32,000 nucleotides of DNA from Candidatus Saganbacteria bacterium (GCA_026387835.1 JAPLKZ010000005.1:243071-275070); one strand, 5' to 3'. Positions 8,604 to 32,000 are shown, counted from the stretch's first letter. Numbers and translations: made by a program. The notes: generated by a model from the letters alone, not told the origin.

Positions 8604-8690
8604 GGAGGGGTGGCCGAGTGGTTGAAGGCGCTCGCCTGGAAAGCGTGTTTACGTGAAAGCGTAACGTGGGTTCGAATCCCACCTCCTCCG
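8604..8690 (+). tRNA. tRNA-Ser(GGA)
   Basis: The cloverleaf has acceptor GGAGGGG/CTCCTCC (one G-U pair), anticodon loop CT-GGA-AA, a long variable arm, T-loop GGTTCGAATCC and discriminator G at 8690. The integrated element starts at its last three bases. Confidence 0.9.
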
Positions 8691-10127
8691 ATGATTGAGA
8701 TATTGAGCGTTTTTAAAAAGCGGCCGCCAGCCGATCCTAGAATCAAATTGTAATTTTTTGCCTTTCAAAATAAAGTTCGAGCCGATATTTTTTAGGAATG
8801 TAAGGATTTCTTCATAATTATTTGTGGCGATAAGATTTTTGGCTTGGCATCCGGATAAAATAATCTCTTTCATCGGTTCGAGCCAATTATTTCCCTTTTG
8901 TTCAAAATCCTTTATCTTTTGTTGTATGTCCAGCTTTTCGTTTAATAGGGCATTCTTTTTTACCTGATATGTTTCCGGGTCTATGCCTTCCCCCTCTATG
9001 AACAGATCAAGCAGTTTATCCATTTTTACTGCAATATCAGATTTCTTTTGTTGCAGATTTTGAACAAAAGATTTTGTTTCTGCTTGAGCAAGCTCTTTTT
9101 CGTTATTGAGGTCTATCAGCATTTTCTTCACCCAGTCATCAGGGATTATCGTTTTGCTGATAGCATCTTTCATCTGATCGATTATGGATTCCTGGCGCGT
9201 ATATTTCTCATCACACTTTTGCTTTTTCTTAGTGCAGCGATAATAGATATGGCCTTTTTGCTTTTCGGCGGTTATCATACAACCACAATTGCCGCATCGC
9301 ATCAGTCCAGAAAAAGCAAATTCATGTTTTCGTTTGCGCTTTTTCTTGCCTCTATTGGCCATTACTTGTTGAGCTTGCTCATATAGAGATTTGGAAATAA
9401 TTGGCTCGTGAGTTCCTTCGTGCATTTCTCCGTTATATCGGAATACTCCATAATAAAAAGGACTTTTTAACATGTGCTGGACACGGGCAGGAACGAGGAT
9501 ATATCCACGATAGCTTTTCATCCCGGCTCTTTCAAGGAATTGCTTTATTGAAAGCAATGTATAGTCACCGGTTGCATACAGCTCAAATGCCTTTCGTATT
9601 AGCGGAGCTTTTTCAGTATCAACTTCAATTCCTTTTGTCTTGTAATTGTTTAGATACCCCAATGGAGCAAATGCAGGCCAAATACCGTTACGCACTTTCT
9701 GCCGATGTCCTCGTTTTACATTCTCGCTTAGATTATCTATGTAATACTTGCTTTGGCCAAAGGCGATATTTAACATGAATTTTCCTTGAGGTGTAGAATC
9801 AAACCAGAAGGTCGGGAACTTGAGATCTTTCAGCCTGCCCGTGTCCAGCAAGTAAATAATTTTGCCTCCATCTATTGAATTGCGTGCTAATCTGTCCGGA
9901 TGCCAAGCCAAAACGCCACAAGCTTCACCTTTTTCAATCCGATCAAGCATTTCATTGAATATTTCTCTGCCGGGTTCTTTGGCAGTTTTTGCCTCGCAGA
10001 GCGAGGCGACGATTTCAAGTTTTTCTTTGGCGGCAAATTCTTTTAGCTCAACCAATTGTGCCTCAATGGATAATATCTGTCTTTCTTCCGAATCAGTTGA
10101 TTTCCGGGCATAAAGGAAATACTTCAT
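8649..10127 (-). CDS. large serine recombinase
   Basis: It has a resolvase-type N-terminal catalytic domain (FLYARKSTDSEERQILSIEAQ...WHPDRLARN), a recombinase domain and a zinc-ribbon (CGNCG...YYRCTKKKQKC), followed by a long helical C-terminal region. A GGAGG-rich RBS precedes ATG 10127. The last 14 codons are antisense to the tRNA-Ser(GGA) 3' half. Confidence 0.93.
   Translation of the reverse strand: MKYFLYARKSTDSEERQILSIEAQLVELKEFAAKEKLEIVASLCEAKTAKEPGREIFNEMLDRIEKGEACGVLAWHPDRLARNSIDGGKIIYLLDTGRLKDLKFPTFWFDSTPQGKFMLNIAFGQSKYYIDNLSENVKRGHRQKVRNGIWPAFAPLGYLNNYKTKGIEVDTEKAPLIRKAFELYATGDYTLLSIKQFLERAGMKSYRGYILVPARVQHMLKSPFYYGVFRYNGEMHEGTHEPIISKSLYEQAQQVMANRGKKKRKRKHEFAFSGLMRCGNCGCMITAEKQKGHIYYRCTKKKQKCDEKYTRQESIIDQMKDAISKTIIPDDWVKKMLIDLNNEKELAQAETKSFVQNLQQKKSDIAVKMDKLLDLFIEGEGIDPETYQVKKNALLNEKLDIQQKIKDFEQKGNNWLEPMKEIILSGCQAKNLIATNNYEEILTFLKNIGSNFILKGKKLQFDSRIGWRPLFKNAQYLNHRRRWDSNPRYAFT
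8688..8762. repeat. IR-A left copy (inverted repeat flanking the recombinase gene)
   Basis: The reverse complement of 10220-10287 matches this region. There are identical blocks of 14 nt and 29 nt (GTTTTTAAAAAGCGGCCGCCAGCCGATCC) plus 17 of 18 nt. They are interrupted by a 7-nt substituted patch and a 7-nt indel. Confidence 0.9.
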
Positions 10128-10157
10128 AATCCCTCCTCCTTTCAATATAGATATCGG

Positions 10158-10178
10158 TCAAAAAGCCCGCTTTTGGCC
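10158..10178. repeat. 21-nt inverted repeat P' (partner 10441-10461)
   Basis: TCAAAAAGCCCGCTTTTGGCC is the exact reverse complement of 10441-10461. It lies just upstream of the recombinase RBS, and its partner lies upstream of the XRE gene. It is hairpin-prone itself. Confidence 0.85.
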
Positions 10179-10219
10179 AGCTTCATTTGGAGTATTTATT
10201 GCTCCAAATGGAGCTGTAA

Positions 10220-10287
10220 GGCAAAAAATTCCAATTTGGATCGGCTGGCGGCCGCTTTTTAAAAACGGCGGAAATCTCAATCATCGG
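10220..10287. repeat. IR-A right copy (degenerate plus-orientation copy of the recombinase 3' end)
   Basis: See IR-A left. It is contiguous with IR-B left and shares the 4 nt TCGG (10284-10287) with it. Confidence 0.9.
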
Positions 10288-10395
10288 GAACTATATAAAA
10301 ATATCAGAACCGAGATGACCGCCGATCCTTAGGGCGGCGGTTGCCGCCGTCCAACCGCCGCCCCGTTCCCGCTGCTGGGCGACCTTTTCGGATTG
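10284..10395. repeat. IR-B left copy (112-nt inverted repeat)
   Basis: The reverse complement matches 14958-15069 at 110 of 112 positions by manual alignment. It contains a G+C-rich 12-bp stem (GGGCGGCGGTTG/CAACCGCCGCCC). Confidence 0.92.
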
Positions 10396-10440
10396 AAAAA
10401 CTGCCAAAGAACCCAAAAATATCGGCTCAAACTTTATTTT
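10396..10440 (+). pseudogene. internally deleted fragments of a second serine recombinase gene copy
   Basis: 10396-10414 is identical (19/19) to recombinase codons 47-52 (KTAKEP; reverse complement of 9972-9990). 10415-10440 matches 25 of 26 nt of codons 446-454 (KNIGSNFIL; reverse complement of 8767-8792). Both lie in the orientation opposite to the intact gene. Confidence 0.75.
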
Positions 10441-10461
10441 GGCCAAAAGCGGGCTTTTTGA
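10441..10461. repeat. 21-nt inverted repeat P (partner 10158-10178)
   Basis: GGCCAAAAGCGGGCTTTTTGA is the exact reverse complement of 10158-10178. Confidence 0.85.
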
Positions 10462-10539
10462 ATTCCGGATTGTCCCCGACCACCCACCCCTGAATAAATT
10501 GATAAATAACGCAATTATTGTTAGTATTATATTGAAAGG

Positions 10540-10560
10540 TAGCATATCAATAATATGCTA
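10540..10560. promoter_or_regulatory. palindrome upstream of the XRE gene (candidate operator)
   Basis: TAGCATA-N7-TATGCTA lies 17 nt upstream of ATG 10577. The preceding TATATTGAAAGG is shared with the region upstream of the recombinase gene. Confidence 0.35.
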
Positions 10561-10576
10561 TCAATTAAATGATATA

Positions 10577-10783
10577 ATGTCAATAAATAATAATATAGGA
10601 AAGAATATCAAACGTTTACGCACAAAATTAGGCTTCTCGCAAGAGACCTTGGCTGTAAAATCAGATGTAAAATACACGACTCTTACTAAGATTGAGAGTA
10701 ATGTTATAAAGAAACCCTCAGTATTGCTAATGGCAAAAATCGCAAATATATTAAATGTTCAAATTGAGGAGCTAATAAAATAA
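10577..10783 (+). CDS. XRE-family helix-turn-helix transcriptional regulator (68 aa)
   Basis: IGKNIKRLRTKLGFSQETLAVKSDVKYTTLTKIESNVIKKPSVLLMAKIANILNVQIEELI is a canonical HTH_3/XRE pattern. The ORF-track start at 10439 reads through the recombinase fragments and is unlikely to be real. Confidence 0.85.
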   Translation: MSINNNIGKNIKRLRTKLGFSQETLAVKSDVKYTTLTKIESNVIKKPSVLLMAKIANILNVQIEELIK

Positions 10784-10787
10784 CCAT

Positions 10788-11483
10788 ATGAAATATGAAT
10801 TGGAAATTTATAATAGAAATGTGCCTGATGAGCATCTTCTTGATGATTTAAAAGCAGTTGCTAAGAAATTAGGCAGGTCTTCTGTGACTCATGAGGAATA
10901 TAATAAAAATGGGAAGTATAATAGTACAACTTATATGCGAAGATTTGGTGGTTGGTTTAAATCGTTAGAAATGGCAGGGCTCCAAAAAACAAGAACGCCA
11001 GCTAATGTTTCCGAAGATGACTTGTTTAACAATATTGAAGAGATTTGGATAAAACTCGGCAGACAACCACGATATCAAGAAGTTAGAACCCCATTATCAA
11101 AATATTGTGCAGGAACATACGAAAACAGATTTGGAACATGGCGGAAGGCACTAGAAGCTTTCATAGATTATATTAATAAGGATCAAGATAAATGTTCAAA
11201 TGAAATATCTCAAAAAGAGATAAAATCCGGAGAGACTTCTAAATCTAATAAACACATAAAGATGACAAAAAGAGAAATATCGGATAGATTGCGTTTCCGG
11301 ATATTATTAAGAGATGGTTTTACGTGCAGAAAATGTGGCCGCAGTCCGCTGAAGAATCCAGGAATCGAATTGCATGTTGATCATATCCTTCCTTGGTCCA
11401 AAGGTGGCGAGACAACGATTGAGAATCTCGAGACGAAATGCGAAAAATGCAATCTGGGTAAAGGGAATGCATTTGATGTTTGA
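10788..11483 (+). CDS. HNH endonuclease with two N-terminal homing-endonuclease-associated repeats
   Basis: The motif Y..RFGxW..xLE.A occurs twice (YMRRFGGWFKSLEMAG and YENRFGTWRKALEAF). The C-terminal HNH motif is CRKCGR...HVDHILPWSKGGETTIENLETKCEKCN. Confidence 0.9.
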   Translation: MKYELEIYNRNVPDEHLLDDLKAVAKKLGRSSVTHEEYNKNGKYNSTTYMRRFGGWFKSLEMAGLQKTRTPANVSEDDLFNNIEEIWIKLGRQPRYQEVRTPLSKYCAGTYENRFGTWRKALEAFIDYINKDQDKCSNEISQKEIKSGETSKSNKHIKMTKREISDRLRFRILLRDGFTCRKCGRSPLKNPGIELHVDHILPWSKGGETTIENLETKCEKCNLGKGNAFDV

Positions 11484-11537
11484 TTCTTATATAGAAATGG
11501 GTAATGTCTTAGAGCAGTTAATAAGGATTGTAATAAC

Positions 11538-12449
11538 ATGGCAAATATAACATGCAAAGCGAATAATCTAAGCGGGAAAAGATGCAAAAGGAATCCTCTG
11601 AAATCTGGGTTTTGTCCAACTCATGACCCGGAAATATTAAATAAAAAAGAAGAACAGAAGAAGGCTGATGAAAAAAAGCGACAAAAAATAGATGAATTAT
11701 TATCTATTGTCACAAAAACATGTAAGGCAAATGGTTGGGGCTGGGAAGTTGATGCATTTGATGATAATGATTTTTCTTCAGCCATTGTTAATGTTCATAA
11801 ATATGTTTCAGGTCAAGACATTTCAGCATTGTTTCACATTAATATATCAAAAGACAATATTCAGTATAGGATTGAGAAAACATCATTTTACGGATACGGC
11901 GTTGAGGCATTAATGAGTTCAATATCAAGTGCATTTGAAAGAAAAGGATTTGTTAGTCCAAAATCACTAGGAGGTGAACCAAATAAAAAGAATTCCTTAT
12001 TAGATGTTTTGCCGATAATATTTGAACGATTTCATGTTGTGGCAACGCAGCTGTCAAATCGTTATAATAAGAGACCTACATTGACAATTTCTGATGAATA
12101 TGACGTACAGGATCTTTTACATGCTCTCCTTCGAGTTCATTTTACCGATGTTAGGCCAGAGGAGTATACTCCCAGTTATGCGGGATCATCTTCAAGAATA
12201 GATTTCCTTCTCAAAGATGAGAAGACGCTTCTTGAGGTTAAATATGCAACAACTTCCTTAAAGGACAAAGCGATTGGAGAACAGTTAATAATAGATGTTG
12301 AGAAGTATAAAAGACACACCGATTGTGAAAACTTGTTTTGTTTCATATATAATCCAGGTTTTTCTATTAAGAATCCAAGCGGGCTAGAAAAAGATTTGTC
12401 AGGAAAAAATGGTAATATTAATGTTAAAGTATTCGTTTACCCAAAATAA
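11538..12449 (+). CDS. hypothetical protein with Cys/His-rich N-terminus and C-terminal PD-(D/E)xK-like nuclease motif
   Basis: The C-terminal SRIDFLLKDEKTLLEVKY fits the D...(E/D)xK core of Hjc/YraN-like nucleases, preceded by an acidic PEE. The N-terminal CKANNLSGKRCKRNPLKSGFCPTH could bind metal. The family is not recognised with certainty. Confidence 0.6.
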   Translation: MANITCKANNLSGKRCKRNPLKSGFCPTHDPEILNKKEEQKKADEKKRQKIDELLSIVTKTCKANGWGWEVDAFDDNDFSSAIVNVHKYVSGQDISALFHINISKDNIQYRIEKTSFYGYGVEALMSSISSAFERKGFVSPKSLGGEPNKKNSLLDVLPIIFERFHVVATQLSNRYNKRPTLTISDEYDVQDLLHALLRVHFTDVRPEEYTPSYAGSSSRIDFLLKDEKTLLEVKYATTSLKDKAIGEQLIIDVEKYKRHTDCENLFCFIYNPGFSIKNPSGLEKDLSGKNGNINVKVFVYPK

Positions 12450-12457
12450 AATAGAAA

Positions 12458-12515
12458 CTAAAAGAATTTGCCGCCAAAGCTCTTGGCGTTTCAATAGAGG
12501 AGTTAATGAAATAGC
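12458..12515 (+). repeat. cassette junction repeat R1 (22-nt core plus XRE-tail remnant)
   Basis: 12458-12479 CTAAAAGAATTTGCCGCCAAAG is identical to the reverse complement of 10025-10046 inside the recombinase gene. The remainder reads ALGVSIEELMK-stop, resembling the tail of the XRE gene. ATG of the next gene is at 12516. Confidence 0.85.
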
Positions 12516-13346
12516 ATGAAAAATAAAACACTCGCAATTTTCGGTATAGGAACGTATATCTTATCTGTCTTGTTGTCTGCTACAGATTCGGGAGGCAATT
12601 CTGTTGCGCCAATTACATTAATCTCAATATCGGGAATAGCAACCGCGGTATTTATCATTATGGCGATAGTCCGCCTCTGGAAGGAAGAAAAAGGCGCATC
12701 AATAACACTTGCATCTTCGGCTATTATTCTTTTTATATTGTCAGTAGTTCAGGGTTTTGCCTCACCTTCGTACGGAAGTCCACTCATCATTATGTTAAAC
12801 ATAACCAAAGTATTTTATTTCATCGCATTTATTTGGACGATAATAGTACTTTATAGAAGTAAAGTAATTAATTCGCACATGATTACCAAAATAGATAATT
12901 ATCACTTAAACCAACCCGTAAATGAAGCGCCGGATTTGAAGGAATACACAGCCGAAGAATATCAAATGTTTGAGATGGCTGGATATAAAAGGATATCTGA
13001 AAATGAAAAAATCTTTAGAGGCGGAATTGTTAAATTCGCTTATATTCCGTGGGGCGAAACAACTATCGGAACTATAGATAATAAAATCTACAAAATATCG
13101 TTACAATTAATCACCCAAAACGAGATCTTAGCAAAAGAAGTGTTTAAAACCACCCTCAATTACTTAATAGAACAAATGGACAAATATAGTGAACATCCAT
13201 TTCTATCTAATAAATATATTTGGGATGCACCTGAGGGGAATATCATTTATGAGCAAATAAATAGATTTAATCAGCATTGCATAAACATTTTTATTACTTC
13301 AAGCTCTATAAGAGATCAAGTGAAGAATTATATTTCAAAACACTAG
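12516..13346 (+). CDS. hypothetical membrane protein (N-terminal multi-TM region, C-terminal soluble domain)
   Basis: The 276-aa ORF has hydrophobic helices in the first 110 aa or so and no recognisable motifs. It starts directly after R1. Confidence 0.6.
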   Translation: MKNKTLAIFGIGTYILSVLLSATDSGGNSVAPITLISISGIATAVFIIMAIVRLWKEEKGASITLASSAIILFILSVVQGFASPSYGSPLIIMLNITKVFYFIAFIWTIIVLYRSKVINSHMITKIDNYHLNQPVNEAPDLKEYTAEEYQMFEMAGYKRISENEKIFRGGIVKFAYIPWGETTIGTIDNKIYKISLQLITQNEILAKEVFKTTLNYLIEQMDKYSEHPFLSNKYIWDAPEGNIIYEQINRFNQHCINIFITSSSIRDQVKNYISKH

Positions 13347-13357
13347 GGGGAAAATAT

Positions 13358-13885
13358 ATGATTATTAAAGTTATTGTTGAAATCATTTTAGGATTTATTT
13401 TGTTGGGAGTTAGTTCTGCTTTTTGGAATTGTGTTAAATCTCCGAAATTCTTAGCGAATGTGCTGGGTGATTATGACGAATTAAAAAGGTTTTTCCATCA
13501 TCTAGGGAAAGAAAATATTAAACACGAAAGTGAAGTTGTTGATCCGAAAATTGGATTTTCGGCAAATATCGTTTTATGGATTAAAGCGAGCCTATCGGCG
13601 CTGGACAAAACACGCAACATGTTGCTGGTTGTAATAATAGGAATCTTTATCGGAAGTTATTTTCTAGGAAATATTTTCCTCTTAATCAATGCTGTTTTAT
13701 TCTTTATAATGGCTTTCCCAAGCATTTCTGCTGCTGCTAAAAATAATATAATTACTGATATTCATACGATAATGCTTAATGTCTACAAATGGAACAAAGT
13801 AAATCATGCTGAATGTGAGAGGTTTTGTAACTTAGAGCAGCCAAGGATTATGAAAAATATTTATAGAGTAGTAACTGAAGAATAA
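13358..13885 (+). CDS. hypothetical membrane protein (175 aa)
   Basis: ATG 13358 is preceded by the RBS AGGGGG. Several hydrophobic helices are present. The ORF-track start at 13277 overlaps the previous gene and is unlikely to be real. Confidence 0.55.
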   Translation: MIIKVIVEIILGFILLGVSSAFWNCVKSPKFLANVLGDYDELKRFFHHLGKENIKHESEVVDPKIGFSANIVLWIKASLSALDKTRNMLLVVIIGIFIGSYFLGNIFLLINAVLFFIMAFPSISAAAKNNIITDIHTIMLNVYKWNKVNHAECERFCNLEQPRIMKNIYRVVTEE

Positions 13886-13942
13886 AAGGATTTGCCGCCA
13901 AAGCGTAGGGCGTTTCAATTGGAGATTTAATAAAATAAATTT
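13882..13942 (+). repeat. cassette junction repeat R2 (core plus decayed XRE-tail remnant)
   Basis: ATAAAAGGATTTGCCGCCAAAG has two mismatches to the core. It is followed by a tail reading A-stop-GVSIGDLIK-stop. I align it with R1 at roughly 80% identity by eye. The TAA of the upstream gene lies inside the core. ATG of the next gene is at 13943. Confidence 0.8.
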
Positions 13943-14926
13943 ATGTCATTATTTAAGAAAAAATTAACCGAGCAAGAAGCCGCCTCTCATTTTGTCCTTT
14001 ATATTACAAAAGAGGCACAAAGTGCATGGCCTGCCATTTATAAAAGTCTTCAAGATTCTTTTAAAGATAAATTTGTTGTAGAAGACGAAACAATGGCAGC
14101 ATTTGATTTGGCTCTTGCCGCAATCGCCCAAGATTTACAGGCGGTAAATAATTTATTTCCAAAAGACCAAGCAGAAAGAATTGAAAAATGGGTTTTAAAA
14201 TGCATTAATACTGAAGATTGGGGCGAATATGCGGTTGGCGAAGTGAAAAAATATGGGGAAAGATTTCAAAAGGATATTCAAAATATCAATGCCGGTGGCG
14301 ATCCTTTGAGCGCCATCCCAACTCGCTTACTCCAGCAATGGCTAGGAAAAAATATTCAAGGCTTTGATGTAGAAATGAACGGAAAGAAAACCGGAATTAT
14401 AAGCCCCTTTCTTCTTATGATGGTTTCCAGTATGCTTGCCGCCTTTCTTGGAACTTGGAAAAAACTAAAGGATGATTTTAATCTTGTTGAGGGCGACATA
14501 CCTTTTGATGAAAAACCAAGTGGCTTGAAAGATTATGTACCCGAGCCGGATGAAAAAAAGCCTAACGGAACTATTCAATATTATGATGAAAACGGGAACC
14601 TAAAAGAGAAATGGTTGCCACCGGAACAAATAAATGAACTTTTAAAGAAAGACGGCGCAAAGCGACTTTATAAAGTACTCGTTAAGGGACATTGGGACGG
14701 TGTTAAGGAAGCCCTTTGGGAACTTTCTGATGATACTGCTCAAAAATATGTTGATGAAAATGGTTATGCTTATGCAATTTGCACTTACGACACAGGAGAA
14801 TTAAAATATTACTTTATTTCAAGAAGATTATGGGAGAAACAAGAGCAAATGGGAAAAATCTTGATGGATCAAAATTTATCACCGGAACAACAGCAAGAAG
14901 CAGTTAGAAAATTAATGGATGACTAA
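13943..14926 (+). CDS. hypothetical protein (327 aa)
   Basis: This is a long ORF with an ATG start directly after R2. It has no recognisable domain. Its TAA stop lies inside the R3 core. Confidence 0.6.
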   Translation: MSLFKKKLTEQEAASHFVLYITKEAQSAWPAIYKSLQDSFKDKFVVEDETMAAFDLALAAIAQDLQAVNNLFPKDQAERIEKWVLKCINTEDWGEYAVGEVKKYGERFQKDIQNINAGGDPLSAIPTRLLQQWLGKNIQGFDVEMNGKKTGIISPFLLMMVSSMLAAFLGTWKKLKDDFNLVEGDIPFDEKPSGLKDYVPEPDEKKPNGTIQYYDENGNLKEKWLPPEQINELLKKDGAKRLYKVLVKGHWDGVKEALWELSDDTAQKYVDENGYAYAICTYDTGELKYYFISRRLWEKQEQMGKILMDQNLSPEQQQEAVRKLMDD

Positions 14927-14957
14927 AATTTCCGCCAAAGAAAAACTTGAAATCGTC
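14923..14957 (+). repeat. junction repeat R3 (fragment of recombinase codons 28-40, plus orientation)
   Basis: CTAAAATTTCCGCCAAAGAAAAACTTGAAATCGTC matches the reverse complement of 10008-10046 apart from two small deletions (4 nt in total). It abuts IR-B right. Confidence 0.8.
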
Positions 14958-15069
14958 CAATCCGAAAAGGTCGCCCAGCAGCGGGAACGGGGCGGCGGTT
15001 GGATGGCGGCAACCGCCGCCCTAAGGATCGGCGGTCAGCTCGGTTCTGATATTTTTATATAGTTCCCGA
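14958..15069. repeat. IR-B right copy (112-nt inverted repeat; right terminus of the element)
   Basis: It matches the reverse complement of 10284-10395 at 110 of 112 positions and ends in CCGA at 15066-15069. Confidence 0.92.
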
Positions 15070-15070
15070 A

Positions 15071-16219
15071 TTATTTCTTCCGCAGCACCCACATCATCTC
15101 TTTCACTCTTATATTCCTGTTCCTAAGGTTCCTTGACCCTCGGTAAGTATTATATTCGCTTGACATAAGCTTCCATTTTCCGTGTTTGGACAGGATGGAC
15201 TTGAAAGTCTTAACGGGGATTATCCCTTCATCATTGTAAGAGATAACGATGAATTTAGCTCTGGTGTTTTTCAGAAGTTGGTCCATTGCCTCTTCGGCAA
15301 GATGCCTTTTGTTATAAACGGACTTGTTCCAATCCCGCGTGATCCCGCTGACGCCGTCCTGGATATAAAAGTTTTTATAGTCATTTATAAGGTTCAGCAT
15401 GAAATAGTTTGACCCGTAAGGATGCTGGTTATAGGGCGGGTCAAGATAGACAAGATCGAACTCCGGAAGATTTGTGTCTTTAACAAGCCGATTAATATCT
15501 TTTTTTAGTACAACGACCTTACACTCGATATCAGAGAATACCGGCACTTCAAGGGTTATTTCCTTTTTTATCCTTGAGAGGGCATTCTCGCCTTTGCCTC
15601 CGAAATGGCCGATGCCGTTCTTCTTGTGGAACCCTTTGAAGACGCCGGAAGTGTTCGTGTGTATAGATGCTTCCACCAGAAGCGATGCAAGACAGAAGAC
15701 GCGGTATTTTTCGGGAACGTCTTTGTCGATGAGTTTCCTAATATTATCGATGACCTGAGCGTTCTTGCTCGTATAAAAAACCCGCTCTCCGGATTTAATA
15801 TCCATATCATCCTTTGGCGAATAATTGAGGCTGATGAAACCTGGCTTATTTATGGATAATTTACGATCATTTAGAATGTCTATGTAATATTCAAGCTTTT
15901 TAACATTTATCTCTGATCTGTTTGCAAGATAACATCTGTTTAGCGTAAAACTGTAATTCTCAAGGTCATTGGCATACAGGACCTTTGCGTAATATTTCAA
16001 AAGCCTCGAAACTGAGCCGCTTCCCGCGAAACCGTCAAGGATAACAAGTTTTTCTTTGTTAAGTATTTTCTTAACTTTAGCAAACCCCTTATTAAGAAAG
16101 GAAAGGAGCGACCTTTTATTGCCGAGATAAGTTATCAGCTGAGAAGAAAAATATGGGGCATCTAAGTCAAGGTATTCCGGGGCATTGCCGGAAAATAAAG
16201 ATCGTTGTATGTGTGCCAT
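15071..16219 (-). CDS. N6-adenine DNA methyltransferase, alpha group (D12/Dam-like class)
   Basis: It has a YLGNKR-type N-terminal motif, motif I DGFAGSGS, a long intervening region, then motif IV DPPY (VYLDPPYN). It is 382 aa. Its stop codon lies 1 nt from the right end of the element. Confidence 0.9.
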   Translation of the reverse strand: MAHIQRSLFSGNAPEYLDLDAPYFSSQLITYLGNKRSLLSFLNKGFAKVKKILNKEKLVILDGFAGSGSVSRLLKYYAKVLYANDLENYSFTLNRCYLANRSEINVKKLEYYIDILNDRKLSINKPGFISLNYSPKDDMDIKSGERVFYTSKNAQVIDNIRKLIDKDVPEKYRVFCLASLLVEASIHTNTSGVFKGFHKKNGIGHFGGKGENALSRIKKEITLEVPVFSDIECKVVVLKKDINRLVKDTNLPEFDLVYLDPPYNQHPYGSNYFMLNLINDYKNFYIQDGVSGITRDWNKSVYNKRHLAEEAMDQLLKNTRAKFIVISYNDEGIIPVKTFKSILSKHGKWKLMSSEYNTYRGSRNLRNRNIRVKEMMWVLRKK

Positions 16220-17638: not shown

Positions 17639-19108
17639 ATGCAGATAAACCTCGCCGGATACAATATCGATGCTGAAGTTCTGGAAGAGCTGAAAAAAGG
17701 GCCCGTCCAAAGGCAGGATGTCACGCCCGAGACGATCTCGGCCGCTTACGCGAGGATCAGCCGCGATCCGAGGCCGATCGACGAACTGCGCAAAGCCGCA
17801 AGGCAGGAGGTTGAAAAGGCCAGGAAGTCGAACAGCAGCATCATATTCAAAATGGGACATCACTCTGTGGCCGAGCACGCCGTATTCAATTTTGATCTGA
17901 TCGCCATATCGCGCCTCGCCGTGGAACACCTGGAGCATTTCAGGCTCTGTTCCTTCACGGAAAAATCCCAGAGATATATAACCCTTGAAGATGATTTTGT
18001 GGTCCCGGAAGAAATAAAAGGTTCAAAAGCTGAAGGGATCTTTGTTTCAACGATAAAGGAACAGAACAGGCTGTACCACCGGCTGAACGAAAAATTGCAG
18101 GCCTATGTCCTGAAGAAACACGCTGTCCTGGCAAAGGACCCGAAGAACGGAGTCCTTCTTGAAGGCTGGGCCAAAGAGGACGCGAGGTACGTGACAGCTC
18201 TTGCGACACAGGCGCAGCTGGGCCTCACGGTGAACGCCAGGAACCTTGAGCTCATGTTCAGGCGTTTCGCGTCGCAGCCCCTCTCAGAGATAAAAGAAAT
18301 ATCGAAAAAGATGTACGGGCTTGCGGCAAAGATAGCGCCTTCCATTATCTTATTTACGGAAGCGAATGAATTTGACGCAAAAACTTACCAGGAAATTAAA
18401 TCCAAAATAAATTCAAAAATCAAAATTCATCATTCAAAACAACCTGAAGTCAGGTTGATCGATCATACGAAAGATGCCGATGATGTTTTGGTGGCGAGCC
18501 TGATGTTCGCAGTGAGCGGAGAGGATTTTGAAAGCTGCGAAAAGAAGGTCAAAAAAATGTCCTTGGCAGAAAAAGAGCTTATTGTTAAAACCTCCGGCAA
18601 ATACATGCAGTTCTATGATACGGTACTCCGCGAGTTCGAGAACATCGATGTGACATTTGAAGTAATGCTGTCATCATCCTGTTTTGCGCAGCTTAAACGG
18701 CACAGGATGGCGACGATAATAACACAGCCGTATGATATCTCTCTCGGTGTGACAGTGCCGCCGTCGATAGACGAAATCGGCATGAAAAAAGCCTTTATGG
18801 AGATCATTGCAAGAACGGAAAAAGCTTATGAGATCGTCATGAAGACAAACTCTGCCGCAGCTCCTTACGTATTGACGAATGCTCACAGGAGAAGGGTCCT
18901 GTTCAAATGCAATGCCAGGGAACTGTATCATCTGTCCAGGCTTCGGGAGGACAGCCACGCGCAGTGGGACATCTGCAATATCTCAAGGATAATGAGCGAA
19001 GAAACTAAAAAGGTCATGCCTTTTGCGATGATGTTCATCGGGGGGAAGGACGGATATCCCGGGATCTATAAAAAGATATTTGGTGAATATCCGAAGGTGA
19101 TGGGGTGA
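17639..19108 (+). CDS. thyX: FAD-dependent thymidylate synthase ThyX, tandem two-domain form
   Basis: Domain 1 has HHSVAEHAVFNF...SR and EHFRLCSFTEKSQRY (SQRY is kept; RHR is degenerate). Domain 2 has QLKRHRMATIITQPY (RHR is kept; SQRY is degenerate) and the typical C-terminal NARELYHLSRLR....AQW. At 489 aa it is about twice the usual ThyX length. Confidence 0.88.
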   Translation: MQINLAGYNIDAEVLEELKKGPVQRQDVTPETISAAYARISRDPRPIDELRKAARQEVEKARKSNSSIIFKMGHHSVAEHAVFNFDLIAISRLAVEHLEHFRLCSFTEKSQRYITLEDDFVVPEEIKGSKAEGIFVSTIKEQNRLYHRLNEKLQAYVLKKHAVLAKDPKNGVLLEGWAKEDARYVTALATQAQLGLTVNARNLELMFRRFASQPLSEIKEISKKMYGLAAKIAPSIILFTEANEFDAKTYQEIKSKINSKIKIHHSKQPEVRLIDHTKDADDVLVASLMFAVSGEDFESCEKKVKKMSLAEKELIVKTSGKYMQFYDTVLREFENIDVTFEVMLSSSCFAQLKRHRMATIITQPYDISLGVTVPPSIDEIGMKKAFMEIIARTEKAYEIVMKTNSAAAPYVLTNAHRRRVLFKCNARELYHLSRLREDSHAQWDICNISRIMSEETKKVMPFAMMFIGGKDGYPGIYKKIFGEYPKVMG

Positions 19109-25518: not shown

Positions 25519-26067
25519 ATGAGCGGAATTAATGGCGGAAGTTTAGCGGTCCCGGTTACAGCCGATGAATACAAAAGACTGTCAGCCCTCAAAAAAGAAG
25601 GATCTGCAAGAAACACGGAAGTCGGGTCTGCAGGTTTTGGAGAAAGGCCAGTAATCTTGCTGGCTGCAGCGCAGCCGGTCGCATCAGCCCCGTCGCCGCA
25701 GTCGGCACCGGACACTTCGGAACAGAAAAAAATAAAAGGGTTGATCGATGTATTTAAAAGCCGTAACTACGTTTGGATCCAAGAAGCAGTCGAAGCTTTG
25801 CAAAAAATCGGAAGTCCTGCAATCCCGGCCATTGTCGAAGCGCTGAAAGACAATGAATGGATCGTTCGATATCACGCCGCCTATACACTAGGTGAATTTG
25901 GCGATAAACAGGCAGTCCCGGATCTCGTGAAAGCATTGAACGATAGTGAAAGCCTTGTTCGCCTGTCTGCACAACAAGCAATCGAAAAGATAAAAAAAGC
26001 ACAAACTCAACCTGTTGCAAAACCCGGCACCATACCGCTCGAAAAGCCTGCGGGGGTCAAGAAATAG
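25519..26067 (+). CDS. HEAT-repeat (PBS lyase-like) protein
   Basis: The C-terminal half carries repeated A.PALV.AL.D....VR..AA.ALG.IG units (AIPAIVEALKDNEWIVRYHAAYTLGEFGDKQAVPDLVKALNDSESLVRLSA). The N-terminal half is low-complexity. Confidence 0.75.
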   Translation: MSGINGGSLAVPVTADEYKRLSALKKEGSARNTEVGSAGFGERPVILLAAAQPVASAPSPQSAPDTSEQKKIKGLIDVFKSRNYVWIQEAVEALQKIGSPAIPAIVEALKDNEWIVRYHAAYTLGEFGDKQAVPDLVKALNDSESLVRLSAQQAIEKIKKAQTQPVAKPGTIPLEKPAGVKK

Positions 26068-28468: not shown

Positions 28469-29326
28469 ATGAAAAAACTGATCGCATTAATACTGGCGGC
28501 ATCTTTAATAGCAAACTTTACTGTAGCTTCTGTTTCAGCAGCGAAGAAAAAAGCCCCGAGAAAGCCGGGGAAGAGGATCGTCAGGACCGTGAAGAATAAA
28601 AAGGCCGTGAAGAATAAAAAACCCGCGAAGAAGACAAAAGCTGCAAAGAAGACGAAAGCCGCAAAGAAGACAAAAGCCGCAAAGAAGACAAAGGTCACGA
28701 AGAAAGCAAAAGCCGCGAAGAAAAAGATAACAGCAAAAGCTGCGAAGATAAAGAAAGCCGCAAAGAAGCCGGCTTTAAAGCCGACACTAAAAAAAGCTCC
28801 GGCAACACCGTGGGTGCCGCCGTTACCTGAAAAAGTAACTCCTGCCCGGGTATCAACTGCAGCGGCAATTCCGGTTGTCCCGTCACCATGGGGCTTGACC
28901 ATAGGGGCTAACTTTGGCGTGTCCGCGGGTCTTACGGCTGCATCGGCAGTGTTAGATTATCCGCTCACAAGATTTATCCGGGGTGCGAAGGTGAGGTTAG
29001 GCGGAGATTATCTCACGGGAGCCAGCGGAAAGGATACCGACCTGAAGATAGCCACGCTGAAATTAGGCGGCATTTACGCGCTCGATATGCTCAAAATGCA
29101 GGACGTGCCGGTCGACTGGTACATCGGGGGCGGGATAATCGTGCCTCTGAAGGTCAGCGGCGGAAGGACCGGTTCATACGGCCTTGAAGCTTATATCGGC
29201 GCTAACATCGCGGTATTTGATATTGGCGCCTTTAATGCGCAGTTTGGATACTCTGCAATAAAATATGGCGGTGCTAGTGCAGCAAAAGGCGGCATAGCGA
29301 CGATCGGATACGCGTACACGTTCTGA
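28469..29326 (+). CDS. outer-membrane beta-barrel candidate with lysine-rich (AAKKTK)n N-terminal region
   Basis: It has the signal peptide MKKLIALILAASLIANFTVASVSA. About 90 aa follow of Lys/Ala repeats. The C-terminal 150 aa or so have an alternating Gly/aromatic pattern ending IGYAYTF (an OMP-type terminal Phe). Confidence 0.7.
   Translation: MKKLIALILAASLIANFTVASVSAAKKKAPRKPGKRIVRTVKNKKAVKNKKPAKKTKAAKKTKAAKKTKAAKKTKVTKKAKAAKKKITAKAAKIKKAAKKPALKPTLKKAPATPWVPPLPEKVTPARVSTAAAIPVVPSPWGLTIGANFGVSAGLTAASAVLDYPLTRFIRGAKVRLGGDYLTGASGKDTDLKIATLKLGGIYALDMLKMQDVPVDWYIGGGIIVPLKVSGGRTGSYGLEAYIGANIAVFDIGAFNAQFGYSAIKYGGASAAKGGIATIGYAYTF
28589..28696 (+). repeat. coding 18-nt tandem repeats (2 + 4 units)
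   Basis: GTGAAGAATAAAAAGGCC occurs twice (28589-28624), followed by four copies of GCRAAGAAGACRAARGYY (28625-28696). These encode VKNKKA/P and AKKTKA units. Confidence 0.85.
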
Positions 29327-29342
29327 CCGGTTAAAATAAACC

Positions 29343-29398
29343 CCCCTGTCACTTCGTGACATCCCTGCCTGCCGGCAGGCAGGTCTCCTTGTCAGGGG
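29343..29398 (+). terminator. nested G+C-rich hairpin cluster downstream of the OMP gene
   Basis: CCCCTG...CAGGGG (29343-29348 and 29393-29398) encloses GTCAC-TTC-GTGAC and a perfect 20-nt palindrome CCTGCCTGCCGGCAGGCAGG (29364-29383). There is no clear U-tract, so terminator function is uncertain. Confidence 0.35.
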
Positions 29399-29520
29399 AG
29401 AACTAAAATTTGGATTTCTATTTTCCCTGCCCAAGATCAAAATCGAGTGAAATTTATAAAAAATACCATCGATACTCTTTCAGCCGATGACGATCCGGAT
29501 ATTAAAGGGAGAAAATAAAA

Positions 29521-30774
29521 ATGCAGACAACTAGGACTTCTTTTGCAGCAGCGTTAAGGACGAGCAGCAGGATCGATGTCGCCGCCAGGATAACTTCGGC
29601 AAGACTTTATTCACCTAATGGTGATTATTGGAGATCCCGTGCCAGTATTCCGGGAGCTGTCCGTGCATTAAATGAAAAAATAATAGATAAGAAAATGGTC
29701 GCGGCTATATTTGCTGATGACAAAATGCCCGTTGCCAGGGCTGCGGATATATTAGCTAGAGTAGAAATGGCTGCGGGAATTTTGGCTGATGTCAAAATGT
29801 CTATTAGCAGGGCTGCGGGTATATTAACTGATGACAAAATGCCTTTAGAGAAAGCTGCGGGTATATTAACTGATGACAAAATGCCTTTAGAGAAAGCTGC
29901 GGGTATATTAGCTGATGACGGTATATTAACTGATGACAAAATGCCTTTAGAGAAAGCTGCGGGTATATTAGCTGATGACAAAATAGATTTAATGAAAGTT
30001 GCGGCTATATTTGCTGATGACAAAATGCCCGTTGCCAGGGCTGCAGGAATATTTGCTGATGGCAAAATGCCTGTTGCCAGGGTTGCGGGAATATTAGCTT
30101 ATCTCAAAATACCTGCAAGCAGGGCTGCGGGTATATTAGCTGATGACAAAATGCCTGCTAGCAGGGCTGCGGGAATATTAGCGCATGATCTTATTAATCC
30201 TTGGAGGGCTGCGGGTATATTAACTGATGACAAAATGCCTGTTGCCAGGGTTGCAGGAATATTAGCTGATTACAAAATGCCTGTTGCCAGGGCTGCGGAT
30301 ATATTAGCTGATGACAAAATATCTTTAGAGAAGGCTGCGGGTATATTAGCTGATGATAAAATGAGTCTTTGCAGGGCTGCGGATATATTAGCTGATTACA
30401 AAATGCCTGTTGCCAGGGCTGCGGATATATTAGCTGATGACAAAATATCTTTAGAGAAGGCTGCGGGTATATTAGCGCATGATCTTATTAATCTTTGGAA
30501 GGCTGCGGGGATATTGGCTGACGGGAAAATGCCTTTAGATAGGGCCGTGAGAATATTAGCATGTGATCTTATTAATGTTCAGAAAGCTGCGGGTATATTA
30601 GGTGGCGGCATAATGCCTATTACCAGGGCCGCGGATATATTAGCCGATGAAAAAATCTCTTTAGATAAGGTTGCAGGCATAATCGGGGAAATGCCGGACG
30701 TAAACGCAATTTACATCTTAGCTGAAATGGGAGACGAACTCGTAAGACGAATTATTGAGAAGATAGGAAAATAA
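29521..30774 (+). CDS. tandem-repeat protein: about 23 copies of a 14-aa unit (AAGILADDKMPxxR) between unique N- and C-termini
   Basis: The 417-aa ORF is preceded by the RBS AGGGAG. The period is 42 nt and in frame throughout. Its N-terminal 50 aa or so are conserved with the next gene. Confidence 0.8.
   Translation: MQTTRTSFAAALRTSSRIDVAARITSARLYSPNGDYWRSRASIPGAVRALNEKIIDKKMVAAIFADDKMPVARAADILARVEMAAGILADVKMSISRAAGILTDDKMPLEKAAGILTDDKMPLEKAAGILADDGILTDDKMPLEKAAGILADDKIDLMKVAAIFADDKMPVARAAGIFADGKMPVARVAGILAYLKIPASRAAGILADDKMPASRAAGILAHDLINPWRAAGILTDDKMPVARVAGILADYKMPVARAADILADDKISLEKAAGILADDKMSLCRAADILADYKMPVARAADILADDKISLEKAAGILAHDLINLWKAAGILADGKMPLDRAVRILACDLINVQKAAGILGGGIMPITRAADILADEKISLDKVAGIIGEMPDVNAIYILAEMGDELVRRIIEKIGK
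29692..30690 (+). repeat. 42-nt coding tandem repeat array
   Basis: Units of GCTGCGGGTATATTARCTGATGACAAAATGCCTNNNNNNARR recur. Two consecutive perfect 42-nt copies span 29812-29895, and a third near-perfect unit carrying an 18-nt internal duplication extends to 29955. A 90-nt perfect duplication links 30261-30350 and 30387-30476. Confidence 0.9.
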
Positions 30775-30775
30775 A

Positions 30776-32000
30776 ATGCAGACAGCAAGACCTTTTTTTG
30801 CGGCGGCGGTAAAAACAAGCAGGGCCGATATTACAACAAGGATAGCTTCAGCAAGACTAACATCCCCAGGTAATTACTGGAGGTCCCGTGCCAGTATCCC
30901 TGAAGCGGTCCTCGTGCTCGGCAATGAAAAGACGGATTTAGGAACGGTCGTGCGCATATTCGCCGATTACAAAATGCCTGTCGGCAGGGCTGCGGGAATG
31001 CTGGCCGGAATGCACAGGGCTGCTGAAATATTAGCTGACACAGGAATGCCTGCGCTCAGGTCTGCGGAAATATTAAAATGTTTTACTTTTGATGCCGGCA
31101 CGGCTTCGTGGATATTTGCCGATAAAAAAATGTCTATAAGCAGAGCTGCGGCTATATTGGCTGAAAGGACGATAACTTCAGATAAGGCCGCAGAAATACT
31201 TGCTGATGGAAGAATGCCTTTAGATAAAGTTGCGGGAATATTTGCCGATATCAATATGACCGGAAGCCGGGCCGCAATTATTCTGGCAGATGAAAAAATG
31301 CCCCCAGTCCGGGTTGCGAGGATATTAGCGCACGATCTTATTGAGCCCAGGAAGGCCGCTGATATATTATCTGAAAATACAATAGGAATAGTAAAAATTG
31401 AGGCAATATTTGCCGATGAAAGCCTGCCTTTAGAGAAAGCTGCAGTCATTTTAAATGATGACAGGTTGACTGTAGAGAAAGTCGCTGCGACTTTAAATAA
31501 CGGCAAAATGCCTCTCAGCAGGGCCGCGGGTATTTTAAATGACGGCAAAATGACCGTTGCCAGAGCGGTTTCAATAGTAGTACATAACAATATGGATGAG
31601 AGAAGAATCGAGACAATATTTGCTGATGACAGAATGCTGCCGGACAGGGCCGCTGCAATATTGGCTGATGAAAAAACAACCGCTCATAAGGTCATGAGAA
31701 TATTAGCCTTTGAAAAAATGCCTGCAAGCAGGGCCGCGGCAATATTAACTGATGACATAATGTTCCCGTGCAGGGCTGCAGCAGTATTTGCCGATGAAAA
31801 AATGCCGGCCCGCAGGGTTTTGAATATACTGGCTGATGACAAGGTCTCAGTAAGTAGGGCTGCGGCAATATTGGCTGATGAAAAGATGCTTGCAAGCAGA
31901 ATCGCGGATATATTTGCGCAAGTAATCAATATCGACTATCAAACTGCCAGCCCGCTCAGGGTCACTTATGACAAAACAATGCCTTTAGAAAAGGCCGCGG
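30776..32000 (+). CDS. paralogous tandem-repeat protein (3' end off-window)
   Basis: It is absent from the ORF track because no stop falls within the window. ATG 30776 lies 1 nt after the previous stop. My manual translation stays open to position 32000. It reads MQTARPFFAAAVKTSRADITTRIASARLTSPGNYWRSRASIPEAV..., followed by more diverged 14-aa units (AAAILADEKMPxxR). Confidence 0.78.
   Translation, partial: MQTARPFFAAAVKTSRADITTRIASARLTSPGNYWRSRASIPEAVLVLGNEKTDLGTVVRIFADYKMPVGRAAGMLAGMHRAAEILADTGMPALRSAEILKCFTFDAGTASWIFADKKMSISRAAAILAERTITSDKAAEILADGRMPLDKVAGIFADINMTGSRAAIILADEKMPPVRVARILAHDLIEPRKAADILSENTIGIVKIEAIFADESLPLEKAAVILNDDRLTVEKVAATLNNGKMPLSRAAGILNDGKMTVARAVSIVVHNNMDERRIETIFADDRMLPDRAAAILADEKTTAHKVMRILAFEKMPASRAAAILTDDIMFPCRAAAVFADEKMPARRVLNILADDKVSVSRAAAILADEKMLASRIADIFAQVINIDYQTASPLRVTYDKTMPLEKAA

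Follow-up and report, generated by a model that had tools for sequence, protein, structure and literature searches.

Two adjacent paralogous genes built from a 14-residue tandem repeat, here called gene 1 and gene 2, lie at positions 29521-32000 of a 32,000-nucleotide stretch of DNA from Candidatus Saganbacteria bacterium (GCA_026387835.1 JAPLKZ010000005.1:243071-275070), the whole of which is referred to as the window. Both open reading frames (ORFs) were found on the + strand at the place given in an earlier note made from the sequence, and their products align at 47% identity. Taking the evidence together, we put the probability at about one half that the two products are a non-enzymatic scaffold or binding pair, probably located in the cytoplasm, whose repeat would be a 14-residue form of the single-helix repeat known from the MgtE_N and FliG families. 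For the 14-residue unit itself, neither a curated model nor a solved structure exists.

A period of 14 residues dominates both proteins, with lag-14 residue autocorrelations of 0.42 (gene 1) and 0.26 (gene 2) against about 0.02-0.14 at other lags, and Tandem Repeats Finder reported a 42-nucleotide (nt) period with 17.8 copies and a score of 533. The dozens of tandem units announced in the earlier note were recovered, at about 24 per protein. Gene 1 encodes 24 units, 22 of which are 14 amino acids (aa) long, the other two being of 10 aa and 20 aa; the 20-aa unit arises from an 18-nt partial duplication. The gene 1 consensus reads A-A-G-I-L-A-D-D-K-M-P-x-x-R, in which I4 is invariant, A1, A2, L5, A6, D7, K9 and R/K14 are nearly fixed and positions 3, 8, 12 and 13 vary. 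Units of gene 2 follow the same pattern more loosely, with 11 residue types at position 3, 10 at position 13 and similar diversity at position 8 (10-11 residue types across these three positions). The unit tables of both genes therefore display the fixed scaffold with few variable positions that had been proposed. The two arrays are colinear: a 10-aa second unit is common to both genes at the matching position, as is an 'AHDLIxP' unit, from which it follows that the array is older than the gene duplication.

The two arrays differ in their recent history. Mean nucleotide identity between units is 72% in gene 1, where several pairs are 100% identical, and 53% in gene 2, where the maximum is 76%, in agreement with the suggested recent expansion of the first gene and stronger divergence of the second. 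Gene 1 also carries exact 42-nt and 60-nt duplicates in addition to the in-frame 18-nt partial duplication. Judged from these patterns, the gene 1 array appears to be remodelled by in-frame unit duplication or conversion and that of gene 2 does not. It had further been claimed that the variable positions draw on a small set of alternatives, which holds for gene 1 and fails for gene 2 with its 10-11 residue types. The restricted set in gene 1 results from the VAR, LEK and INxW variants being copies of a few unit types, and the unit variants of this gene co-vary as duplicated blocks.

Comparison of the two genes over 380 aligned codons revealed 124, 123 and 191 differences at first, second and third codon positions, respectively, with a nonsynonymous divergence (dN) of 0.42, a synonymous divergence (dS) of about 1.14 and a dN/dS of 0.37; the N-terminal module alone, at 0.22, is under tighter constraint than the repeats. 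This excess of third-position changes in the + frame, together with saturated dS, argues against the alternative that the locus is a non-coding tandem DNA repeat (minisatellite) whose long ORFs are accidents of a stop-free unit. Moreover, both ORFs start with an ATG preceded by a Shine-Dalgarno-like sequence and have a non-repetitive N-terminal module in common, gene 2 remains open for at least 408 codons despite units only 53% identical in DNA, and the unit recurs at the protein level in 49 distant proteins. A minisatellite would fit the finding that no identical or close protein turned up in any collection searched, and also two ORFs, 146 and 207 aa long, on the antisense strand of the repeats, although these are by-products of the stop-poor repeat. 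This alternative is close to refuted, and sequence comparison indicates that genes 1 and 2 are real, old tandem paralogs under purifying selection. Their codon usage differs from that of the housekeeping genes of the window, with a G+C content at third codon positions (GC3) of 0.38 as opposed to 0.61 and TTA accounting for 60% rather than 7% of leucine codons.

Structure prediction, one of the checks proposed in the earlier note, points to a solenoid. AlphaFold2, supplied with the two-sequence alignment of genes 1 and 2, yielded a model with a mean predicted local distance difference test score (pLDDT) of 81, a predicted template modelling score (pTM) of 0.73 and pLDDT > 90 over residues 180-400. 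According to DSSP, each unit of the model consists of one 9-residue helix (positions 12-14 and 1-6) and a 5-residue loop (positions 7-11, DDKMP), and the 14-aa units are predicted to stack into an α-solenoid. From the model and helix geometry, the core would be formed by A1, A2, I4, L5, M10 and the hydrophobic residue at position 12; positions 1, 2, 5 and 12 should share one helix face with I4 nearby, and positions 13 and 3 should lie opposite. P11 would begin each helix and D7 end it, with positions 13, 3 and 8 likely forming an exposed variable stripe. In Foldseek searches of the PDB and of viral models, all matches were to generic α-solenoids of the ARM, HEAT, importin or ankyrin kind, with 4c0p (E = 1e-4) and 4rv1 (E = 4e-4) among the top ones.

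An exposed stripe of variable residues on a fixed tandem-helical scaffold is what would be expected of modular nucleic-acid readers such as TALE, PUF or PPR proteins, in which one or two variable residues per unit specify a base, and the earlier note had drawn this comparison. TALE, PUF and PPR units are 33-36 aa long, contain two or three helices, present basic binding surfaces and use a small residue code. The window proteins likewise repeat a helical unit whose scaffold is conserved and whose few variable positions are predicted to lie at the surface, but none of the distinguishing features was found: the unit has 14 aa and one helix, the repeat regions are acidic or neutral (net charge -8 in gene 1 and 0 in gene 2) and no TALE, PUF or PPR Pfam model matched at E ≤ 10. 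In addition, the diversity of gene 2 leaves no small alphabet at the variable positions, the small alphabet of gene 1 follows from block duplication, and when aligned units were compared across the paralogs the variable positions were conserved no more than in shuffled pairs (permutation p = 0.13). A recognition code of this type is therefore not supported, and nucleic-acid reading is considered very improbable.

Insight into the repeat comes from its relatives. An exhaustive phmmer search of 1.84 billion representative sequences with gene 2 as the query (cut-off E < 1e-3) matched 49 distant proteins, the best at E = 1.4e-14 and all of them through the repeat part only. Nearly all of these matches have a period of 14 or 28 residues, and their unit can be written as [KR]-A-A-x-I-[LF]-x-[DN]-x-x-[LM]-[ST]-x-x, thus sharing period and consensus skeleton with genes 1 and 2. 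A profile of the window's units recognised this hit set with full-sequence E-values down to 1e-36. We conclude from these searches that both proteins appear to belong to a sparse, unnamed 14-residue-repeat set, no member of which carries a database name for the repeat itself. Identity to the window proteins is only 22-40% and confined to the repeats, and none of the set has the N-terminal module of genes 1 and 2. Small bacterial relatives carry the 'MP' loop seen in genes 1 and 2, among them the nearest relative P0009, whose C-terminal tail also resembles the gene 1 C-terminal cap.

The domain architecture of the set is varied. Relatives include 'PGF-pre-PGF domain-containing' proteins of SAR202/Chloroflexota with CARDB domains and a membrane anchor, as well as 'BNR-4 repeat-containing' giants from Dehalococcoidia; in others the C-terminal domain is of the Laminin_G_3, F5/8 type C or Gly-rich kind. 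Most members thus join the array to CARDB, PGF-pre-PGF, BNR_4, Laminin_G_3 or F5/8 type C domains, whereas in genes 1 and 2 the array stands alone. A role of the repeat as a fibre stalk is suggested for virus-like relatives because related proteins end in lectin-like or Gly-rich domains. One such protein, P0066 (P0006 cluster), contains the 14-residue unit and is encoded at 21-1664 of L089, a same-strand, ORFan-rich contig that also encodes an archaeal-type primase large subunit (PriL) and is probably an archaeal virus. Among the small bacterial relatives with the 'MP' loop, P0026 and P0043 adjoin smpB. It was also observed that at two loci from unrelated samples (L082, 2011-4423; L084, 3230-4582) smpB and an acyltransferase gene precede a gene whose product is a helical-repeat protein of irregular 'MP' type; L082 continues with a further repeat protein that resembles a paralog of the first, an echo of the window's tandem pair.

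Other searches did not extend this picture. An exact look-up found no identical protein on record for gene 1, neither gene 1 nor the unit profile A2 had a match in word-indexed searches, and pattern scans based on the two-protein alignment found no relative in genome, metagenome or viral contigs. Searching phage genomes by tblastn with gene 2 and with P0010 was equally negative, PADLOC yielded no match for the repeat proteins, and PHROGs gave only summed weak matches to families without assigned function. No further copy of the repeat genes was seen in the window or in 1.27 Mb of fetched loci, and no paper on a 14-residue repeat together with a solenoid was found in the literature.

Searched directly, both window proteins lack a significant Pfam, NCBIfam or PDB sequence match, and the earlier note's statement that the repeat could not be assigned to a known family stands to that extent. 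It does not hold for the wider set, since relatives with the 14-aa unit pass the MgtE_N model (PF03448), whose gathering score is 25.9 bits: P0003 scores 47.6, P0004 37.2, P0029 29.6, P0042 55.7 and P0049 41.5 bits. P0042 also scores 38.8 bits with FliG_M and passes the gathering score of PF14841. The matched regions overlap, with gene 2 matching P0003 at 337-518 (E = 3.9e-14) and MgtE_N at 431-500 of the same protein, and similarly gene 2 matching P0029 at 17-148 (E = 7.5e-7) and MgtE_N at 60-135. No curated family other than MgtE_N is matched repeatedly across the repeat regions of these relatives.

The solved MgtE N domains (2YVY, 8GPS, 8GPV and 2OUX) are made of 12-residue single-helix units, e.g. 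PKEYKAEVFSHL / DPDFQEETIRSI / GSDEVSEILNAM, of the form P-x-x-x-A-x-x-[LIF]-x-x-[LM]. The MgtE N domain has been described as a right-handed bundle or superhelix of ten helices (PMC3604715). As predicted for the window proteins, the MgtE N domain (PF03448; PDB also 2YVX) and the related ARM-like motifs of FliG (PF14841 and PF14842) consist of consecutive single short helices connected by tight turns. The residue patterns are similar as well, with a Pro/Ser helix start, small residues, a hydrophobic pair ([IV][LF]) and a Leu/Met turn, as illustrated by MgtE KAAEVLSHLSPEEQ next to window RAAGILADDKMPLE. Differences concern the period, which is about 12 in MgtE N and 14 here because the loop is two residues longer, the regularity (about ten irregular units compared with about 24 highly regular ones) and the context, since MgtE and FliG repeats are attached to CBS, transporter or FliG domains and the products of genes 1 and 2 have no other domain. 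ARM and HEAT proteins, e.g. importin-alpha, beta-catenin, transportin and designed ARM proteins, belong to the same α-solenoid class. ARM and HEAT units generally span about 40 aa and two to three helices. The window unit, with 14 aa and a single helix, differs from them accordingly and produced no ARM or HEAT Pfam match. On these similarities, the most plausible reading of the unit is a version of the MgtE_N/FliG single-helix repeat with a 14-residue period. Because direct tests are weak, it is treated as a related variant and not as a member of PF03448.

Both proteins start with a module of about 55 aa that can be aligned from residue 1 and contains an invariant YWRSRASIP, confirming the common N-terminus that had been noted. 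In gene 1 this module has an isoelectric point (pI) of 11.2 and is rich in Ser, Thr, Arg and Ala; residues 1-41 have pLDDT < 50 and the module is probably disordered. No relative of the module was found among the gene 2 phmmer hits or with a hidden Markov model (HMM). A 'DYWR' likeness in the N-termini of P0010 and P0015 was rejected after an HMM test, and a degenerate DNA scan of metagenome contigs for YWRSRASIP[G/E/D]A gave a single match that is due to chance and lies in a non-coding frame. By sequence reading, neither product carries a Sec, Tat or lipoprotein signal, a membrane segment or anchor, or a C-terminal sorting domain of known type, so that the previously reported lack of a signal peptide is upheld. 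At the other end of gene 1, longer helices are predicted to form a C-terminal cap that would close the solenoid.

We hypothesize that the two proteins act as a pair of non-enzymatic binding or scaffold proteins, in which the solenoid surface would serve as an interaction platform and the N-terminal peptide as a docking or targeting motif, with the gene 1 array still being remodelled through in-frame unit duplication or conversion. Joint working is suggested by the retention of colinear paralogs, the probable translational coupling and purifying selection, and the N-terminal peptide, constrained and probably disordered, has the appearance of a motif for docking or targeting. Those MgtE_N and FliG domains that have been characterised act as interaction modules in the cytoplasm, and in diderm bacteria proteins without an export signal are generally expected in the cytoplasm. 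The cytoplasm is thus the most likely location, given that no export signal was found and that characterised domains of this type reside there.

It should be noted that a number of results weigh against this interpretation. With PF03448, gene 1 reaches only 12.2 bits (E = 0.27), and only over its C-terminal residues 377-414, and gene 2 has no match at E ≤ 10. An hhalign comparison of the unit profile A2 with the four PDB MgtE N domains gave a probability of 16.7%, with two loop residues of every unit deleted in the alignment. The HMM search with the 14-aa unit, likewise proposed in the earlier note, recognised the distant relatives but found nothing among PDB sequences (hmmsearch with profile A2, no match at E ≤ 10). 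Periodic low-complexity sequences can also exaggerate homology. On the structural side, the score of one of the five AlphaFold2 models was 43.8, and when ten units were modelled by themselves from a single sequence the pLDDT was only 53, the helix-loop pattern being unchanged in this low-confidence model. Foldseek TM-scores were 0.14-0.35 with root-mean-square deviations > 12 Å, and the overall geometry is present in no solved structure. Regarding location, the distant relatives with the 14-residue unit are surface or virus-like proteins, and an N-terminus conserved from its first residue would be compatible with a secretion signal at that end as well.

The last two points lead to an alternative in which the pair is exported or surface-associated, of a length-variable contingency or adhesin type, with the N-terminus as a non-classical secretion signal and the array as a stalk or binding surface in which recombination would alter the number of units. 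The missing Sec, Tat and lipoprotein signals, membrane anchor and known sorting domain speak against it, as does the finding that the 32-kb window contains no secretion-system gene. The unit duplicates of gene 1 are typical of fast-evolving arrays and thus in line with a surface role, but gene 2 shows no recent unit turnover. Further consistent with export are the disordered, basic and Ser/Thr-rich N-terminus, the SAR202 PGF-pre-PGF/CARDB surface proteins and the proteins with lectin-like C-termini or virus-like character among the relatives, and the atypical codon usage. The earlier note had based a possible surface or secreted role on the neighbouring genes. Proteins with signal-peptide-like N-termini are indeed encoded next door, but a strong hairpin lies between gene 1 and the gene for the upstream exported protein, and together with the missing export signal this leaves the argument weak. 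We regard an exported pair as possible but unlikely.

The loops raise a different option, namely that their D-D/E pairs would line up as an acidic ridge binding Mg2+ or Ca2+, or a polycationic partner such as the Lys-rich tract encoded upstream, much as the N domain of MgtE senses Mg2+. Within the loops D7 hardly varies and position 8 is usually occupied by D or E, and the gene 1 repeats have a net charge of -8; K9 and R/K14, though, leave the individual units near neutral, and the gene 2 repeats have a net charge of 0. In MgtE itself, Mg2+ is held by acidic N-domain residues where this domain meets the CBS domain (PMC3604715). As to a polycationic partner, the gene directly upstream does encode a (KKTKAA)n tract, but its product has a signal peptide and those of genes 1 and 2 have none; the proteins are therefore expected in different compartments. 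Overall, cation or polycation binding appears improbable.

It is also conceivable, if doubtful, that the unit represents a distinct, undescribed class, the shortest-period regular α-solenoid, with an evolvable recognition surface. The two proteins would then form a heteromeric binder, and the peptide at their N-termini (MQT..R..FAAA...YWRSRASIP) would act in Margulisbacteria as a targeting or export signal of a new type. If this were true, unit duplication would reshape the specificity of the gene 1-gene 2 heteromer.

Coordinates of the gene pair and its associated signals are compiled in Table 1.

Table 1. Features of the repeat gene pair and its upstream region (positions counted from the first nucleotide of the window).
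Feature	Position	Strand	Basis and remarks
Gene 1 coding sequence, complete	29521..30774	+	ORF scan; 417 aa + TAA stop
Gene 1 N-terminal module	29521..29688	+	aa 1-56; alignment, charge, AlphaFold
Gene 1 repeat array	29698..30711	+	aa 60-397; unit table, DSSP, Tandem Repeats Finder
Gene 1 C-terminal cap YILAEMGDELVRRIIEKIGK	30712..30771	+	model helices 393-402 and 405-415
Gene 2 coding sequence, cut by window end	30776..32000	+	translation; at least 408 aa
Gene 2 N-terminal module	30776..30937	+	aa 1-54; pI 10.8
Gene 2 repeat array	30947..31999	+	at least 24 diverged units, colinear with gene 1
Shine-Dalgarno-like AAGGGAG	29505..29511	+	sequence reading; 9 nt before gene 1 ATG
Weak Shine-Dalgarno AGGA	30765..30768	+	sequence reading; 7 nt before gene 2 ATG, within gene 1 end
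Stem-loop between upstream outer-membrane-protein-like gene and gene 1	29342..29398	+	sequence reading and RNA fold

The N-termini of the pair are well defined, since no more than five codons are open ahead of the gene 1 ATG. A single base separates the gene 1 TAA from the start of gene 2, which suggests that the two genes are probably translationally coupled. The stem-loop at 29342-29398 has a folding energy of -30.5 kcal/mol (z = -3.75 relative to shuffled sequences) and contains a perfect 20-nt palindrome, CCTGCCTGCCGGCAGGCAGG, at 29364-29383. A simple terminator scan made no call on this hairpin, which is not followed by a T-run, and Rfam gave no match within 27.5-32 kb of the window. The element is probably a terminator or insulator and could alternatively be a protein-binding site. 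Because this stable stem-loop separates them from the upstream gene, genes 1 and 2 probably constitute their own transcription unit. Gene 2 is incomplete, and genes downstream of it lie outside the 32-kb window.

The upstream neighbour genes with signal-peptide-like N-termini have no family match. The product of 28469-29326 (+) consists of a signal peptide, a long Lys-rich (KKTKAA)n tract and a C-terminal part of about 150 aa that has the look of a small β-barrel with a YAYTF end; no Pfam, NCBIfam, PHROG or PADLOC family matched it. A polycationic tract on such an outer-membrane-like protein is unusual. Further upstream, 25519-26067 (+) encodes a small protein of PBS-lyase-type HEAT repeats with weak similarity to CpcE, CpcF and NblB. 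This protein has no sequence kinship to the 14-residue repeat genes, and the host lineage is non-photosynthetic and sister to Cyanobacteria.

Sequence similarity places the window on a Candidatus Margulisiibacteriota chromosome. Margulisbacteria are an uncultured sister phylum of Cyanobacteria. PyrG of the window has matches at up to 92% identity, with contigs from related genomes at 79-92%; matches at ≤ 79% that carry an organism name are almost all from Candidatus Margulisiibacteriota or Saganbacteria, the exceptions being single matches labelled Omnitrophota or 'bacterium'. The taxonomic placement follows from this similarity together with the synteny of a related contig stretch, L087 (1-16147), from atpD to PGK. 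A second contig, L088, is syntenic from atpD to the beta-lactamase gene, the comparison covering the first 17 kb of its 45 kb. Relative to the expected site of the repeat genes, the L087 stretch stops about 5 kb and the L088 stretch about 10 kb too early. A search based on the MFS_3 neighbour was discarded, as the 80 loci obtained were at most 56% identical, came from many phyla and had neither synteny nor the repeat. Several contigs from related genomes are present in the collection, yet the exhaustive phmmer search found no gene 2 orthologue. Therefore, the pair either is restricted to a narrow lineage or has been lost from short-read assemblies owing to its repeats.

Some observations concern the remainder of the window. 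In its housekeeping genes, 49% of Ile codons are ATA and 58% of Arg codons are AGG. A low-GC island at 8649-16219 (GC 0.32-0.42, compared with about 0.48 elsewhere) encodes a serine recombinase, an HNH endonuclease with HNH_repeat, a DpnII/MboI-type restriction enzyme, three ORFans and a D12 adenine methyltransferase, of which only the methyltransferase is present at the equivalent place in L087. This suggests a mobile element inserted beside the methyltransferase, or a restriction-modification cassette rebuilt there. The ThyX homologue at 17639-19108 (+) is 489 aa long, similar to its relatives in L087 (469 aa) and L088 (483 aa), and contains two Pfam Thy1 stretches; it may be internally duplicated or fused.

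Units of ARM, HEAT, TPR, PUF, PPR and TALE repeats span 33-45 residues. A regular α-solenoid with 14 residues and one helix per unit is therefore unusually short. Defining the unit would name parts of surface proteins of SAR202, abundant marine Chloroflexi, and of probable archaeal-virus proteins, would link these proteins to the MgtE/FliG helical repeat and would provide a compact scaffold for protein design. For Margulisbacteria, the finding adds a lineage-restricted and rapidly remodelled gene pair, whose practical impact is modest for now.

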